NCBI GenBank assembly: GCA_045648785.1 | Contig: JAZROP010000036.1 | Location: 2,457-66,456 of the forward strand | Source: Clostridia bacterium | GTDB lineage: Bacteria > Bacillota > Clostridia > RUG12999 | Reading direction: 5' to 3' | DNA: 64,000 nucleotides | Part shown: in pieces, positions 8,504 through 63,400 of the stretch | Layout of the letters: the number at the start of each line of letters is the position of its first letter | Position numbering within the stretch: the stretch's first letter is position 1 | Program-made: the position numbers and the translations under genes | The notes under the pieces: generated by a model | Told to the model about the DNA's origin: nothing | The model's input: the letters and a program-made list of their open reading frames with translations, nothing else | The model's database searches: none

Positions 8504-9133
8504 TCAGAATAATTTTTCAAATCCTTTGAGCCACTGGCGCTTGATAATCTCATGACCTGCCGCAAGAGGATGAACACCGTCTGCAAGTACTTTATCGGGG
8601 CCTGCAATAGCTGCAAGCTTTTCCATTTCTTCCTGAAGAGGAACAAATACAAGCCCATTTTCTTCTGCAACTCGTTTTACAGCTGCTGCTTTTTCTTTTA
8701 CAGCTGCAAAAAATTCATCAAATTTACCTTCGTTTGCATCTCCGGGGAGAACAAAAGGTTCAAAAATCATTATTTTTATGTTGGGTAATGCTGATTTCAC
8801 ATCTTCAATAAGAATGTTGTAAAGTCTTTCAAAACGGTCAGTTTCAACGCCGTTTTGATACATAAATTCATGCCACACATCGTTAACACCGATTAAAATA
8901 CTTAAAACATCAGGTTTTAAATTAATAAGGTCTGATTTGAGCCTGGCATATAGGTCTACAATTCTGTTGCCGCTGATGCCACGGTTTAAAAATTCATATT
9001 TACCGGGGTTTTCGTAAGCAAGCGTGGCTGCGACAAGGGTAGGATAGCCGCAACCCATATAGCCACCAATTTTTTCTGTATCACGCACTCTTTGTGCGTC
9101 TGTAATTGAATCGCCCTGAAATAAAATTCTCAT
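8504..9133 (-). CDS. SGNH/GDSL-family hydrolase (esterase)
   Basis: Block I FQGDSITD, block III GVND, and a C-terminal DGVHP (DxxH) motif. Confidence 0.85.
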   Translation of the reverse strand: MRILFQGDSITDAQRVRDTEKIGGYMGCGYPTLVAATLAYENPGKYEFLNRGISGNRIVDLYARLKSDLINLKPDVLSILIGVNDVWHEFMYQNGVETDRFERLYNILIEDVKSALPNIKIMIFEPFVLPGDANEGKFDEFFAAVKEKAAAVKRVAEENGLVFVPLQEEMEKLAAIAGPDKVLADGVHPLAAGHEIIKRQWLKGFEKLF

Positions 9134-58374: not shown

Positions 58375-58881
58375 TTAGTTTGCCACTTTTACCATGCTGT
58401 GGCGAATAATTTTTTCTTTATATTTATAACCGGGCATAAGTTCTTCGACAATCATATTGTCCCCGACGGAGTCGTCATCAATATGCATAACTGCATTGTG
58501 AAGATTAGGGTCAAATTCTGTGCCGACAGCCGGAATTTTTTCTATGCCAATATTGGCAAATGCTTCGTCAAACTGACGAGCGATAAGCATAAAGCCTTGC
58601 TTTGCGGGATTGTCATCTTCTCCGTCGAGAGCAGCAATCGCACGGGCAAGGTTATCCATTGCGGGAAGCAGATGCATCACAGCATCACCAACACTCTGTG
58701 CAGCTATCATATCACGCTCTTTAATTGTACGCTTTCTGAAATTATCATATTCTGCTGCAAGCCGCATAAGTTTATCTTCATATTCGGCTTTTATGGATTC
58801 GCAGGTAACCTGCGGTGTTTCTTCAGCCACTTCTTCAGAAACTTCTTCTATAATTTCTTCTTTTTCATTCTTCTCTTTCAT
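58375..58881 (-). CDS. grpE: nucleotide exchange factor GrpE
   Basis: RLAAEYDNFRKR motif. Positioned between hrcA and dnaK. Confidence 0.9.
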   Translation of the reverse strand: MKEKNEKEEIIEEVSEEVAEETPQVTCESIKAEYEDKLMRLAAEYDNFRKRTIKERDMIAAQSVGDAVMHLLPAMDNLARAIAALDGEDDNPAKQGFMLIARQFDEAFANIGIEKIPAVGTEFDPNLHNAVMHIDDDSVGDNMIVEELMPGYKYKEKIIRHSMVKVAN

Positions 58882-59914
58882 TTGTCAAGCTCCTTTCATT
58901 TCCGCCAAGGCTATTGCTCAGTTCATCTTTGAGATATTCGAGCATGGATACAGCCTTTGAATAATCCATTCTTTTTGGACCGACAAGAGCGATTCGGCCT
59001 GCCTTGCCGCTGATGTTATAGCTTAAAACTGCCATACTGCAATCGCCAAGTTCTTCAAATGGGTTTTCGTGGCCGATTAATACACTGATGCCGTTTTCCT
59101 CAAGAGGGATTGTGGCAAGAGAACGGATATTATTTTTATTGTGCATAAAGTTTAAAACTTTTTTAGCTTTTTCAACATCTGAGTATTCGGGGAAATTTAA
59201 AAGGTTTGCACTGCCGTCAACGGCAAATCTGTGACCATCATCGCAAGTAACCTCGCTTATAAATTCCATTATTCCATCAATAAGCTGCTTGTTGTCTGTA
59301 GAAAGAAGTTTTATTGACATTATAAGGTCAAGCGTTATATCTGAAACGGAAAGTCCTGAAAGCTTTGAGGTTAAAATGCCTGTAAGTGCCGCAACCTGAT
59401 TTTCTGTAATTCCCGCGGTCTGTATAAGTTTGGTTTTTATTGAACCGTCCTGCAAAACAAGAAGCACAACCACGCGACTGCTGTTTATATATAGAACCTG
59501 AACAGAATCAATAATTACTTTTCCGGACGATGAGCTTACCGAAAGGGCAGCATATGATGAAATATGTGCAAGCACCGAGGAAAGCTCGGACAAAGTATCG
59601 TTTGCTTCCTTCATTTTTTTTACGAGAGTTTCGTGCATTGAAAGCATTTCGGATATTGTCAGTTTGTATTTGCTGAGCATACTGTCAACATACACTCTGT
59701 ATCCTAGGTCGGACGGAATTCGGCCTGCCGAAGAATGGGGCTGATAAAGGTAACCCAATTCTTCAAGGTCTGCCATTTCGTTTCTGATAGTGGCGGAGCT
59801 GAGACTCGGTATATGATTTTTTGAAATTGTCCTCGAACCAACCGGTTCGGCGGTTTTGATATAATCTTTGATTATTGCCTGCAAGATTTTTCTTTTGCGG
59901 TCACCAAGCTGCAT
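58865..59914 (-). CDS. hrcA: heat-inducible transcription repressor HrcA
   Basis: N-terminal winged helix RKRKILQAIIKDYIKTAEPVGSRTI. Start taken at the ATG at 59914, downstream of CIRCE. Confidence 0.9.
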   Translation of the reverse strand: MQLGDRKRKILQAIIKDYIKTAEPVGSRTISKNHIPSLSSATIRNEMADLEELGYLYQPHSSAGRIPSDLGYRVYVDSMLSKYKLTISEMLSMHETLVKKMKEANDTLSELSSVLAHISSYAALSVSSSSGKVIIDSVQVLYINSSRVVVLLVLQDGSIKTKLIQTAGITENQVAALTGILTSKLSGLSVSDITLDLIMSIKLLSTDNKQLIDGIMEFISEVTCDDGHRFAVDGSANLLNFPEYSDVEKAKKVLNFMHNKNNIRSLATIPLEENGISVLIGHENPFEELGDCSMAVLSYNISGKAGRIALVGPKRMDYSKAVSMLEYLKDELSNSLGGNERSLTNEREE

Positions 59915-59937: not shown

Positions 59938-59964
59938 TTAGCACTCGTTGGTGGTGAGTGCTAA
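59938..59964 (-). promoter_or_regulatory. CIRCE operator (HrcA binding site)
   Basis: TTAGCACTC-N9-GAGTGCTAA, a perfect match to consensus. Confidence 0.95.
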
Positions 59965-59968
59965 TAAT

Positions 59969-59997
59969 ACTATAATACTTTTTTTTGGTAATGTCAA
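59969..59997 (-). promoter_or_regulatory. sigma-A promoter of the hrcA-grpE-dnaK-dnaJ operon
   Basis: Minus strand reads TTGACA-17 nt-TATAGT, directly abutting CIRCE. Confidence 0.65.
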
Positions 59998-60015: not shown

Positions 60016-61239
60016 TTAAAATTCATCCATGAAAGTTTCAAGGCTATATTCCATAGCATCAAGGCTGTCTATATTTATGCTGCCATTGTCAAGCCGTTTA
60101 TCCGAGCCGGATGCATTATCCCATACAGCAGAGGAAAGAGCTTCAATAACATGCTTGCAATTTTTTAAAATATAAAAACGACTGTGAGACATAGCTGAGC
60201 AAACAAAGCGAATTCTGTCATTAACGGCGCGTTTTCTTGCATTGCGAACATCTATGCCCAGCAGGTTATCTAATGCAGCTGTTTCAAGTCCGTTTATAAG
60301 TGTGGTTTCTGCATTATCACAATAAACATCATAAATGTTGTATCTGGCTTTGCAACGCGATACAAATTCAACAAAATAGTCCTCCAGTCGTTTAGGTGAA
60401 ATTTCCTCTCTTATATAGAATTCATCAAGAACAATAATTTTATCCATATTATGGGTAAAACCACTGCACACAAAGGCATGTGCTGATTTGTTACCGCCAA
60501 AGTCTATGCCGATACATGCAAAGGATATTTCGTCGGGAGATATGCCAGGCAGGATAAATTCGTCAGGTCTGTCTGCAAAACTGCGGTATATAATTCCCTC
60601 TGCTGCTTTCCATTTGCCGAGAATAAATCTGTCATAGTAAACGCCAGTATATTCCTTTTTCAGGCTTTTTACATATGACCGGTCAAGAAAAGTATTGTCG
60701 CTCAAAAGAAAATTTTCCACCAGCATATCAAGCTCGTTTTTTCGGTCAATATATTTCTTTTTAAGCCAATGATACGGACTGTCCGGGTTGGTTGTTGCAA
60801 AAAGTTTTGCTCCTTTTTCACTAAGTCGGGACAAAAGCATTACAAAAAAGCTTTCGTTAAATAGTGTAAGCTCGTCGCAGTAAGCACCCATAAGTGTCAT
60901 GCCTCGTATTTTACTTTCTGAGCGACAGTCATTAGCCCCCTCAAAATAAATTTTTCTACCAAAAAGCCTGCCCTCCTTTTTAGCGATAGAGTAGAAGAAA
61001 TTGTCAGGGCCAACCAACTGTTCAAGTAGAGTTAGTACATTTCTATCAAGAGAGACGAGCGTTTTTGAAGCCATAAGATAGGAAGAGGTTTTCGGACTTG
61101 ATGCCACCCAAAATGCCCAGAGAACAAGGCTAATCCATGTTTTTCCGCTTCTGACACTGCCTGTTAAAATGTTTAATCTCCTGAGTTTTCCGCTTTTCCA
61201 TTTTTTCATAAGCTTAAGTTGTTTTTTGCTGTAAATCAT
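60016..61239 (-). CDS. phage-type terminase large subunit (PBSX/Terminase_3-like), solitary
   Basis: Walker A GSVRSGKT and Walker B AYCDELT. Nuclease acidic residues in GIDFGG, VYCDNAE and SLDAMEY. ATG at 61239 follows the GGAAG RBS; the ORF-track TTG at 61257 is less likely. Confidence 0.8.
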   Translation of the reverse strand: MIYSKKQLKLMKKWKSGKLRRLNILTGSVRSGKTWISLVLWAFWVASSPKTSSYLMASKTLVSLDRNVLTLLEQLVGPDNFFYSIAKKEGRLFGRKIYFEGANDCRSESKIRGMTLMGAYCDELTLFNESFFVMLLSRLSEKGAKLFATTNPDSPYHWLKKKYIDRKNELDMLVENFLLSDNTFLDRSYVKSLKKEYTGVYYDRFILGKWKAAEGIIYRSFADRPDEFILPGISPDEISFACIGIDFGGNKSAHAFVCSGFTHNMDKIIVLDEFYIREEISPKRLEDYFVEFVSRCKARYNIYDVYCDNAETTLINGLETAALDNLLGIDVRNARKRAVNDRIRFVCSAMSHSRFYILKNCKHVIEALSSAVWDNASGSDKRLDNGSINIDSLDAMEYSLETFMDEF

Positions 61240-61245
61240 AAAAGC

Positions 61246-61285
61246 ACTTCCTTTCAATCTTTAAAAATAACCTTTGAAAGGAAGT
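61246..61285 (-). promoter_or_regulatory. RBS-sequestering hairpin at the terminase 5' end
   Basis: Perfect 12-bp inverted repeat ACTTCCTTTCAA (61246-61257) / TTGAAAGGAAGT (61274-61285) with a 16-nt loop. In the mRNA the 3' arm contains the Shine-Dalgarno sequence. Confidence 0.55.
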
Positions 61286-61531
61286 TATAACTATCAACTT
61301 AAAAAATATTGCATTGGGGGAGCGTTTGTGTTATAATTAATGAACAAAGAAGCTTATTATATAAAAGCACTTAAGAGATATCGCTCTTTCAAGCACTGTG
61401 ACAATTAACAGAGTCACAAAAATGATCTTAAAAGCAAGTGTTTTTACTTATGTTAAAATGATTTCTTGCATATAAAATGTACACGGATTGTAAAATCGAT
61501 TATATCTAAACCAGAGAAAGGAAGATGAATT

Positions 61532-62065
61532 ATGTCGAATATATGGCACGATATTTCACCGAAAAGAATAAATGCGGATGATTTTATCTGCGTTGTAGAA
61601 ATTTCAAAAGGCAGCAAGAAAAAATATGAACTGGACAAGGAAACAGGATATCTTCTGCTTGACAGGATTTTGTACACATCAACGCATTATCCTGCAAACT
61701 ATGGATTTATTCCGCGTACATACGGCGATGATAACGACCCGCTTGATGTTCTTTTGCTTTGCACAGAACAGATTGAACCGATGACACTTGTCCGAGCATA
61801 TCCTATAGGGGTTATTTCTATGGTTGATAATGGCAGAAATGACGAGAAAATTATAGCAATTCCGTTTAACGACCCCTATTATAACATATATAAAGACATC
61901 AATGATTTGCCCAATCATGTGTTTGATGAAATGCGTCATTTCTTCGCGGTTTATAAAAATCTTGAAAACAAAACAACTGCAGTAAATGAGGTTAGCGGTT
62001 GCGAGCAGGCAAAGAAAATTATTAAAGCATCAATTGAAAATTATGTGGAAAAATTCTGCAAATAA
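61532..62065 (+). CDS. ppa: inorganic pyrophosphatase, family I
   Basis: Family I motifs in the sequence stretch EISKGSKKKYELDKETG...DGDPLDVL. Confidence 0.9.
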   Translation: MSNIWHDISPKRINADDFICVVEISKGSKKKYELDKETGYLLLDRILYTSTHYPANYGFIPRTYGDDNDPLDVLLLCTEQIEPMTLVRAYPIGVISMVDNGRNDEKIIAIPFNDPYYNIYKDINDLPNHVFDEMRHFFAVYKNLENKTTAVNEVSGCEQAKKIIKASIENYVEKFCK

Positions 62066-62111: not shown

Positions 62112-62146
62112 AAAAAGGACAGTTTTAAAACTGTCCTTTATATTTT
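62112..62146. terminator. bidirectional terminator (ppa / apgM-like gene)
   Basis: Palindrome AAAGGACAGTTTTAAAACTGTCCTTT flanked by A and T runs. Confidence 0.8.
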
Positions 62147-63345
62147 TAACCTATAAGTATATCAATAAGCTTATGTCCTTCTTCTATGAAAAGTCCTGTG
62201 GACGCAGCATATTTTTCTGTATAAACTGCATCAGGATTGTTTTTCTCATCATTGCTTCTGTAAATGAGGAATGGAACGGGTTCTCTTGAATGAGTTTTTG
62301 TTGCAATTGGTGTAGGATGGTCGGGCAAAATCATAATGGAGTAGTCAATTTTTGCCTCATCAAATCTTCCAAGCAGATATTTTAACACTCTTTCATCAAG
62401 ATAACCGATAGATTTAATTTTATCATCTGCATCGCCATGATGACCACATTCATCCGGTGCTTCAAAGTGAAGATAAACAAAATCCGAGTCGCCGAGAAGA
62501 GCGTCTGCCGCCGCTTTTGCTTTGCCCTCAAAATTTGTGTTTATATTGCCTGTGACATTTTCAACCTCAATAACATTCATGCCTGCGCAAAAGCCTATGC
62601 CTTTTACAAGGTCAACTGCAGAAACTACACTGCCTTTGAGACCTGTTTTCTTCTCAAAGTTTTCTACCATAGGTTTTGTACCTTCGCCCCATAGCCATAT
62701 TGAGTTTGCGGGGTTAAGACCGCGCTCAATTCTCTTGAGGTTGACGGGATGGTCTTTCAATATCTCGTAGCTCTTTTTCATCATTTCGCAAAAGAGTGGT
62801 TCGCTCGGCATATATTCAGTGATTTTTCTGTCTGAAATATCGTGTGGTGGTGTGAGTGTAAATTTTTTGTCACATCCGTGCCATACCAGAAGGTGACGGT
62901 AGGAAATACCTGCGTGGAATTCCTGAATTTCTGTACCAAGATGCTCGGAAACAGATTTTATAAGCTCAGCGGCTTCTTCGGTTGTAATTTCACCGGAAGA
63001 ATAGTCCACCATTGTTTTGTTTTCATAAATCTCATCGTCTGATAGAGTTACAAGATTGCAGCGGAAAGTCATATCATCATCTGCAAGCTCAACGCCAATG
63101 CTTGCCGCTTCAAGAGGGGAACGGCCTGTATAACATTCCAGAGTGTTGTAACCCATAACAGAAAGGTTTGCAACATCGCTGCCCGGTTTTAAACTGTCCG
63201 GAACAGTTTTAACCATACCAAGAGTACCTTTTTTTGCTAGAGTATCCATCAGCGGCTTTTCTGCAAGCTCGAGAGGGGTTTTATTGTCATATCCGGGAAG
63301 CGGAAGGTCAGCCATACCGTCGCCCAGAAGAATTAAATATTTCAT
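62146..63345 (-). CDS. cofactor-independent phosphoglycerate mutase homolog (ApgM-type; the family proposed as a non-orthologous homoserine kinase)
   Basis: Alkaline-phosphatase-superfamily motifs LLGDGMAD and PDECGH. Divergent from hom. Start taken at MKYLILLGDG after AAAGGAGG. Confidence 0.7.
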   Translation of the reverse strand: MKYLILLGDGMADLPLPGYDNKTPLELAEKPLMDTLAKKGTLGMVKTVPDSLKPGSDVANLSVMGYNTLECYTGRSPLEAASIGVELADDDMTFRCNLVTLSDDEIYENKTMVDYSSGEITTEEAAELIKSVSEHLGTEIQEFHAGISYRHLLVWHGCDKKFTLTPPHDISDRKITEYMPSEPLFCEMMKKSYEILKDHPVNLKRIERGLNPANSIWLWGEGTKPMVENFEKKTGLKGSVVSAVDLVKGIGFCAGMNVIEVENVTGNINTNFEGKAKAAADALLGDSDFVYLHFEAPDECGHHGDADDKIKSIGYLDERVLKYLLGRFDEAKIDYSIMILPDHPTPIATKTHSREPVPFLIYRSNDEKNNPDAVYTEKYAASTGLFIEEGHKLIDILIG

Positions 63346-63371
63346 ATGTATTCCTCCTTTGTTATTAAAAC

Positions 63372-63400
63372 AGTATATCACTTATTGCGTAAATTGGCAA
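63372..63400 (-). promoter_or_regulatory. sigma-A-type promoter for the apgM-like gene
   Basis: Minus strand reads TTGCCA-17 nt-TATACT. Confidence 0.45.

Follow-up and report, generated by a model that had tools for sequence, protein, structure and literature searches.

A phage-type large terminase fixed beside hrcA as the probable packaging motor of a gene transfer agent-like system in gut Monoglobales

The stretch of DNA analysed here, 64,000 nucleotides in length and hereafter called the window, corresponds to positions 2457-66456 of contig C36 in a metagenome-assembled genome (MAG; G000, 1.46 Mb in 46 contigs, 96.7% complete), and carries a single gene for a phage-type terminase large subunit (TerL) amid housekeeping genes. 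We propose that this protein is probably the large terminase of a particle system derived from a phage, in which it would act as the ATP-driven motor for DNA packaging and as the headful nuclease. Together with a module of head, tail and lysis genes found elsewhere in the genome, TerL most likely constitutes a host-owned, domesticated system similar to gene transfer agents (GTAs), which has been inherited vertically in an uncultured genus of gut Monoglobales. We favour this interpretation, as (i) TerL is intact and under selection, (ii) a head-tail-lysis gene set shares both its history and a cis-motif with it, (iii) the loci are fixed, (iv) genes for a phage lifestyle are lacking and (v) the components are dispersed. 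The system appears to be spread over at least two, and probably three, loci: TerL between apgM and hrcA, the module at the rnf locus, and a gene for a 169-aa protein with multiple helix-turn-helix (HTH) repeats beside folD. Among several functions suggested for TerL in an earlier note on this DNA was that of helping a GTA-like element encoded at another site, and this is essentially what the evidence supports.

An intact terminase among housekeeping genes

The gene and the extension preceding it are located as follows.

60016..61239, minus strand: TerL coding sequence, 407 aa from ATG 61239; packaging ATPase at the N-terminus, RNase-H-like nuclease at the C-terminus
61240..61257, minus strand: in-frame 5' extension to a TTG codon (the 413-aa reading), overlapping the 3' arm of the leader hairpin described below

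The open reading frame (ORF) at 60016..61257 on the minus strand comes to 413 aa when counted from the TTG codon. The true start appeared to be ATG 61239, judging from an alignment with 12 relatives and from the position of the Shine-Dalgarno (SD) sequence. As conservation begins at MIYSKKQ, the N-terminus of the protein, and the SD sequence GGAAG lies 7-8 nt before this ATG, the length of TerL, previously left at 407-413 aa, can be settled at 407 aa. Translation of the stretch 61240..61257 is improbable, given its overlap with the 3' arm of the hairpin.

The earlier assignment of the protein to the PBSX-type terminases, with its motifs preserved, held up. TerL matched TIGR01547, the model for PBSX-family TerL, with 153.6 bits (cutoff 105.05; residues 29-409 covered), and further matches were obtained to Pfam Terminase_3, Terminase_6N and Terminase_3C as well as to PHROG_2. 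A solved large terminase (5OE8/5OEA) was aligned to residues 6-408 with an E value of 8e-43. We compared the motifs in an alignment of 13 sequences, comprising eleven bacterial orthologs or relatives and two phage TerLs. The ATPase motifs, namely Walker A (GSVRSGKT), Walker B ((C/V)DE within YCDELT) and the coupling motif (TTNPD), were invariant in all 13, and the acidic motifs of the nuclease, G(I/V)DFGG, CD(N/S)AE and DSLDAxEY, were conserved with their Asp residues kept. A search of the genome indicated that G000 carries only one TerL of the PBSX-type family, the one in the window, and both the GC content at third codon positions and the codon usage of the gene are typical of the host genome. 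The orthologs are labelled 'PBSX family phage terminase large subunit [Monoglobales bacterium]' at NCBI.

Orthologs were sought in 60 relatives, and the comparison at the level of the family comprised 25 species. Intact TerL orthologs without internal stops were found in all five other species of the genus (6/6 with G000) at 71-82% identity, and others, likewise intact, with 57-67% identity were found in four other genera of the family. In every assembly reaching that far, i.e., G000-G004 and three independent metagenome contigs, TerL is placed directly upstream of hrcA-grpE-dnaK. The earlier note had regarded absence from close relatives as a sign of a recent prophage remnant; instead, all of them carry TerL at this site. 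The dN values for TerL were 0.10-0.22 and the dS values were saturated (~1-3), giving an omega (dN/dS) of ~0.05-0.12, which matches the figures for HrcA, RnfC/D, portal and capsid and bears out the purifying selection that the earlier note had proposed to look for. Moreover, the ranking of species by divergence was identical across all of the genes compared (TerL, portal, capsid, HrcA and RnfC/D). That the gene is retained rather than in random decay, as had been suggested from its uninterrupted reading frame, is thus supported by its intactness, by purifying selection and by its fixed housekeeping setting.

In a tree of 126 TerL sequences, the TerLs of the genus type formed an exclusive clade with 99% support, including 13 metagenomic members. 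TerL, portal and the 169-aa HTH gene occur in the same five genera of the 25-species family, barring single absences in incomplete genomes and a prophage TerL in G021, and these five genera form a clade with 100/98 support on the DnaK tree. Vertical descent within the genus is supported by these data, and a single ancient acquisition across the five genera is plausible. The genome G021 carries a TerL of 53% identity together with a genuine Terminase_2-type small terminase (TerS) and an unrelated portal, and this TerL probably belongs to a true prophage. A second, distant TerL (34-36% identity) was noticed in two genomes (G003:C29:6008-7153 and G010:C49:15782-16969); these copies presumably belong to ordinary prophages unrelated to the conserved system.

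The neighbours of TerL in the window are as follows.

58865..59914, minus strand: hrcA, first gene of hrcA-grpE-dnaK-dnaJ, with its true start at ATG 59914
59938..59964, no strand assigned: controlling inverted repeat of chaperone expression (CIRCE) operator, a perfect TTAGCACTC-N9-GAGTGCTAA, read directly
59969..59997, minus strand: hrcA promoter, TTGACA-17-TATAGT, from 18 nt past the TerL stop
61532..62065, plus strand: ppa (inorganic pyrophosphatase), divergent from TerL, a G000-specific insertion between apgM and TerL
62146..63381, minus strand: apgM (cofactor-independent phosphoglycerate mutase family; Pfam Metalloenzyme/PhosphMutase), the ancestral co-directional upstream neighbour of TerL

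The stop codon of TerL occupies 60016-60018, and the -35 element of the hrcA promoter (TTGACA, 59997-59992) follows 18 nt on; with its -10 element (TATAGT), this promoter matches the consensus at 11 of 12 positions. No terminator-like site was found between the TerL stop and the hrcA promoter, so that reading the sequence confirmed both the spacing and the lack of a terminator reported earlier. The hrcA promoter lies 8-50 nt past the TerL stop in all members of the genus, and CIRCE is kept in all orthologous loci. The earlier description of the site as an hrcA-ppa locus needs to be amended: the adjacency of TerL and hrcA is conserved in relatives, but the insertion of ppa is specific to G000, as ppa is missing between apgM and TerL in G001, G002, G005 and three metagenome contigs. 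As for hrcA itself, its longest ORF opens at GTG 59944 and overlaps CIRCE; ATG 59914 (MQLGDRK...) is preceded by the SD sequence GGTGGTGA, and all relatives conserve this start.

Apart from TerL, no phage homolog was found in the window with the proteins of two related phages, three prophage-like elements, and the head-tail module and satellite-like island of G000 as queries, the ORFs of the window having not been scanned exhaustively with hidden Markov models. Likewise, no att-like direct repeats bracketing TerL were found. Both results agree with what had been noted from the window before.

A head-tail-lysis module at the rnf locus

TerL had been called an orphan. The term holds within the window but not for the genome, where a second fixed locus supplies cognate genes for portal, scaffold, capsid, adaptor, tail and lysis. 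The TerL ortholog of other genera has, immediately behind it, a gene for a protein of ~430 aa and then a row of further genes; homologs of these were found in G000 on contig C31. The genes on C31 encode, in order, portal, an 84-aa protein, scaffold, major head protein, head-tail adaptor, a 132-aa protein, tail completion protein, a 162-aa tail-tube-like protein, a Gp15-type tail chaperone, a 224-aa protein, Dit, a Tal-like minor tail protein, and receptor-binding-like and leucine-rich repeat proteins. PHROG matches were obtained for portal (1e-106), major head protein (1e-64), scaffold, adaptor, tail completion, Dit and minor tail, and the Gp15 tail chaperone was recognised by Pfam (3e-40). 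The module is ~11-13 kb in length and, in G002, G004 and genus g4, ends distally with a holin and an Amidase_2 endolysin. It is flanked by the host genes rnfC-D-(G)-E-A-B, with portal divergent from rnfC, and this junction is the same in G002, G003 and G004. For TerL and the module, the positions are kept in five to eight lineages of the genus.

The module list includes no genes other than those for head, tail and lysis, and no integrase, att repeats, replication genes or lysogeny-control genes were found adjoining TerL or the module. Neither a sheath-sized gene between tail completion and Dit nor any contractile-tail gene was found in the module; the tail genes (Dit, Tal and Gp15 chaperone) are, by their sequences, of the long-tailed, non-contractile type. 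The earlier note had considered that the rest of a prophage might lie in the flanks. The rest does exist, yet far away from TerL, and it forms a module fixed in the host rather than a prophage. TerL is unlinked from portal in genera g1 and g2, and contig positions place the two genes at least ~82 kb apart in G003, which would be beyond any plausible small head.

In G000, additional copies of the holin and amidase genes were found at C10 3084-6183, C11 6-1050 and C42 2-565, amounting to three copies of the amidase endolysin and two of the holin, accompanied by variant receptor-binding-like genes. At its start, C31 shares 96% identity with C10 4172-4573. The assembly is broken at this point because the distal region is repeated, which reflects either a duplicated or variable module or a mixture of strains in the MAG.

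The third putative locus encodes the 169-aa protein (G000 contig C4, 1215-1724, minus strand). It contains three HTH-like repeats, matches phrog_323 at 7e-14 and sigma region 4 weakly, and scored one bit under the cutoff of the small-terminase family PF10668. The gene adjoins folD in G000; its homologs are neighbours of TerL in G012 and, in G010, separate TerL from portal. The protein is a candidate for an activator or a DNA-recognition partner of the system.

Several other proteins were considered in the search for a partner of TerL. A Terminase_2 TerS homolog at ~23.1 kb of contig C4 was ruled out as the TerS of the system, as it is part of an integrated island specific to G000. The ORFs in the TerS position of the two related phages have no homolog in G000. 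The 84-aa protein encoded after portal is homologous to an ORF directly upstream of TerL in G010, and has no more than eight close relatives. In genus g4 (L023/G013 and L024/G008), the contiguous element opens with a ParB-like gene (ParB_N and HTH_ParB), the stop of which overlaps the TerL start (ATGA), and the block is located beside groEL; this ParB-like protein may be a substitute for a small terminase.

The island itself covers ~16000-25900 of contig C4 (L084 1-9850; ~10 kb) beside secE-nusG-rplK-rplA. It carries genes for an integrase-like protein, an HTH and S24 repressor, an excisionase-like protein, an AAA_25 primase/helicase-like ATPase, a sigma factor (region 4) and an ImmA-like metalloprotease as well as the Terminase_2 TerS (PF03592 at 5e-33), and lacks capsid, portal and TerL. 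From this gene content, it looks like a phage satellite of the phage-inducible chromosomal island type.

A shared motif, a leader hairpin and a putative mode of action

Two features in the leader of TerL bear on its expression.

61246..61285, minus strand: leader hairpin, with the 5' arm ACTTCCTTTCAA (anti-SD) and the 3' arm TTGAAAGGAAGT (containing the SD sequence)
61287..61297, minus strand: conserved motif TTGATAGTTAT (genus consensus RTTGATAGTWRT), abutting the 5' arm of the hairpin

In all five species examined, the motif TGATAGTAGT was found ahead of TerL, portal and scaffold, 60-70 nt before the portal start and ~135 nt before the scaffold start. The genome of G000 contains 20 matches to the motif, ~6 of which are intergenic, and three of these intergenic matches are the ones before TerL, portal and scaffold. 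Two other intergenic matches (C43 84693 and C3 34258) lie in ordinary host context. On the basis of its positions, the motif is a probable dedicated promoter or activator site. A canonical -35 element was not settled on, since the spacing to the -10-like element varies from 16 to 22 nt; the motif could be either a -35 element or an activator site. A hexamer, xATGCT, is conserved in the loop of the TerL hairpin, 16-17 nt after TTGATA.

The hairpin was found in front of TerL in seven lineages, with differing arm sequences and free energies of -13 to -25 kcal/mol. In an alignment of five sequences, 89.7% of the cells were paired, versus 37-57% in slid controls, and 4 of the 12 pairs showed compensatory double changes; with so few sequences, such covariation is supportive rather than a proof. 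In the lineages with the ancestral apgM-TerL arrangement, the hairpin lies 5-15 nt past the apgM stop and is followed by a U-tract, and there it looks like the terminator of apgM. The 3' arm is predicted to sequester the ribosome-binding site of TerL. For RNA started in the loop, which lacks the 5' arm, the predicted fold amounts to only -2 to -6 kcal/mol, versus -13 to -25 kcal/mol for the read-through RNA. We rejected an RNA thermometer at this leader, as perfect stems of such strength are too stable to melt at 42 C.

A comparable arrangement is found in the late genes e, 49 and soc of T4, in which a hairpin hides the SD sequence in read-through RNA and a dedicated promoter starting inside the hairpin frees it. 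The Monoglobales leader resembles these genes in that the motif borders directly on the 5' arm and the loop contains a conserved xATGCT, from which we infer a similar mechanism; the two differ in the type of promoter.

Regulatory elements of other kinds were noticed at the C31 locus. The portal leader contains a perfect palindrome, GTAAATATTTAC, between the -10-like element and the ribosome-binding site of portal (C31 10663-10674). It is conserved in five species and has two genomic copies versus 0.34 expected; it is likely to be the operator of a regulator. The scaffold leader (C31 ~8935-9060) is highly conserved over ~120 nt, also in L034, L035, L039 and L040; it opens with the palindrome TCAGTTAACTGA and holds the conserved hairpin-like segments GGGCAGGACATATAAA.TGCC and TCCCTTGCGGAA.GGGA. 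Possibly, this leader functions as a structured regulatory RNA or in anti-termination.

If the proposed GTA-like system is genuinely functional, it could work as follows. The promoter or activator site TTGATAGTAGT would turn on TerL, portal and scaffold/capsid jointly. The TerL promoter would fire within the hairpin, which would otherwise terminate and translationally silence read-through from the upstream housekeeping gene, and TerL would thus be produced only upon induction of the system. The protein would then dock on procapsids bearing the portal and fill them by a headful mechanism. The cargo would probably be host DNA, because no conserved sequence-specific small terminase accompanies TerL. 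Finally, the holin and amidase would free the particles. We infer co-expression, particle formation and random packaging from the gene set, with either DNA transfer or PBSX-like killing as the outcome.

A more elaborate version is attractive to speculate on, but we regard it as doubtful when taken as a whole. In this version, the genus has a GTA of the long-tailed-phage type with an unlinked and rewired motor: TerL would be translated only from the promoter inside the hairpin, and induction would read into hrcA-grpE-dnaK-dnaJ, tying the supply of chaperones, or the heat-shock status, to capsid assembly, while the island on C4 may parasitise TerL and the capsids. The read-through into the hrcA operon is proposed because none of the lineages shows a terminator between TerL and the CIRCE/hrcA promoter; that the system is functionally coupled to the heat-shock operon is speculative.

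Alternative functions, known particle systems and implications

Several observations weigh against the GTA-like interpretation or narrow it. In the tree of 126 TerL sequences, the TerL clades of g1, g2 and g4/g6/g8 form a polytomy with other TerLs of Clostridia, and the genera g4, g6 and g8 carry a different type of capsid. Since the deep branches of TerL are not separated, we limit the claim of vertical descent to the genus; beyond the genus, the data are consistent with it. Of the cognate genes that the earlier note had thought worth seeking in the genome, those for portal and capsid were found on C31, but no conserved small terminase was identified among the genes of the system, nor was there any ORF between apgM and TerL. 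The 84-aa protein, a candidate for this role, showed no Pfam or PHROG family, and its AlphaFold model was poor (predicted local distance difference test score, pLDDT, 56). The label of tape measure for the 224-aa protein is positional only, being based on its place directly after the Gp15 chaperone, and a profile of this protein with a 386-aa relative gave no significant match to phage tape measures. The G000 module runs off the end of contig C31 into the repeated receptor-binding and lysis region, leaving its distal end unassembled. The spacing between the motif and the -10-like element is 16-17 nt at TerL and two portal promoters and 21-22 nt elsewhere, and the candidate -10 element of TerL in G000 is weak. 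Finally, the sequence of G000 is held in only four gut-metagenome DNA runs and in no RNA or virome run.

Among the alternatives, the one with some real weight, though unlikely, is that the same genes have another output, i.e., PBSX-like killer particles or a defective phage, in which host DNA is packaged and not delivered, and which would serve competition between strains. The placement of TerL in the PBSX family agrees with this possibility, and so do the receptor-binding-like proteins of the module, which evolve rapidly and are present, along with lysis genes, in several variant copies, as would be expected for targeting functions. The same question has been left undecided for the GTA of Faecalibacterium prausnitzii (PMC12946183). 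Nevertheless, the module possesses no sheath or contractile genes, its tail is of the long, non-contractile type, and the element is dispersed, whereas PBSX is contiguous. Moreover, a non-contractile particle whose head is filled with DNA has little precedent as a killing agent.

It is quite improbable that TerL and the capsid module chiefly serve mobile satellites, with the C4 island hijacking TerL for its own packaging. The TerS of the island is 39-41% identical to the TerS beside the 53%-identical prophage TerL of G021, and because of this likeness it appears to be of the type that partners this lineage of TerL. However, none of the other five species of the genus has the island, whereas all of them keep TerL and the module; being restricted to G000, it cannot explain why they are retained.

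We consider very improbable that TerL is a solitary exapted enzyme, acting as a translocase or nuclease outside capsids (in DNA repair, sporulation or defence), and that its co-occurrence with the module is coincidental. Genus-wide, TerL is unlinked from the structural genes, placed between housekeeping operons and under strong purifying selection, all of which would suit such a role. Against it, portal, capsid and TerL are alike in both phyletic pattern and divergence ranking, one 10-nt motif precedes TerL, portal and scaffold, and in sister genera TerL is still joined directly to the portal operon. In addition, all classes of residues for capsid packaging are kept, and the protein aligns over its full length with a bona fide phage terminase. 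We found nothing to support the free-standing translocase/nuclease or the role in sporulation DNA handling that the earlier note had listed among the options. The idea of a neutral prophage remnant that has yet to decay is hardly tenable: a phage gene standing alone among housekeeping genes is what a remnant usually looks like, but TerL is intact in at least eleven lineages with saturated synonymous sites and an omega of 0.05-0.12, its catalytic motifs and regulatory structure are conserved, its composition is fully host-like, and the congruent divergence ranking argues against recent horizontal copies.

The preferred reading, a domesticated GTA-like system, can be compared with several known particle systems. 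Split GTA-like operons and packaging of the GTA type have been shown experimentally in gut Clostridia for FpGTA of Faecalibacterium prausnitzii (Nat Commun 2026, PMC12946183). Like the system described here, FpGTA is phage-derived, near-ubiquitous in a genus of gut Clostridia and organised in separated operons; it lacks replication and lysogeny genes, includes lysis genes and has no obvious DNA-binding TerS (PMC12946183). The two are set apart by the published description of FpGTA, in which operon I unites TerS, TerL and portal (with scaffold and capsid) and the particle resembles a podovirus, whereas TerL of the Monoglobales is unlinked on its own and the tail genes are of the long, non-contractile type. 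The hosts also differ, belonging to Oscillospirales and Monoglobales, respectively, and FpGTA is backed by particle, proteomic and packaged-DNA evidence, whereas the Monoglobales system is known from its genes alone.

RcGTA of Rhodobacter capsulatus is encoded by the head-tail cluster of a long-tailed phage, is inherited vertically under purifying selection and possesses accessory loci, a short tail, a dedicated activator and release by lysis (reviewed in PMC11841831). The Monoglobales system, as read from sequence, is similar to RcGTA and other alphaproteobacterial GTAs in its origin from a long-tailed phage, its vertical inheritance under purifying selection and the presence of genes at other loci. 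It differs in that TerL is kept inside the main cluster of RcGTA, and represents an independent domestication in Firmicutes with no detectable regulatory relation.

PBSX of Bacillus subtilis spans ~28 kb without interruption, has a contractile tail, encodes TerS (XtmA) beside TerL (XtmB) and is under xre/xpf control. It is a chromosomally fixed, non-infectious particle of a Gram-positive bacterium that packages host DNA (see also the discussion in PMC12946183). Its terminase belongs to the same family (TIGR01547) as TerL of the window, whereas the Monoglobales system has neither a sheath nor an adjacent TerS, and its loci are dispersed.

The nearest phage records are bajarodcaudo virus 3 (PQ006094; 49% TerL identity) and an uncultured faecal phage contig (MT835475; 57%). 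These free phages share the TerL lineage (49-57%) and have related portals (29-36%) but, in contrast to the Monoglobales system, are contiguous over at least 30 kb, have a gene in the TerS position beside TerL, and carry tape measures of 971-1037 aa. Bajarodcaudo virus 3 additionally has an endolysin, an integrase and a replicative helicase.

In the literature, we found no paper that links Monoglobales with GTAs. The system described here would be an independent one of the long-tailed-phage type, in which the terminase alone is unlinked and has its own translational gate, its independence from FpGTA being judged by layout and tail type, not by sequence. GTAs were long held to be rare, until work published in 2026 indicated that packaging of the GTA type is common in gut Clostridia and tied one gene set, FpGTA, to it. 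Our finding adds a candidate gene set from another order, Monoglobales, with another ancestry and with its motor alone at a separate locus. The shared promoter-like motif, the conserved putative translational gate and the fixed junction with the heat-shock operon provide testable handles on this system. The finding also carries a warning for annotation: in MAGs, a terminase taken for an 'orphan' and a head-tail cluster that seems 'terminase-less' may be the two halves of one host-owned system, both of which are misjudged by prophage finders.

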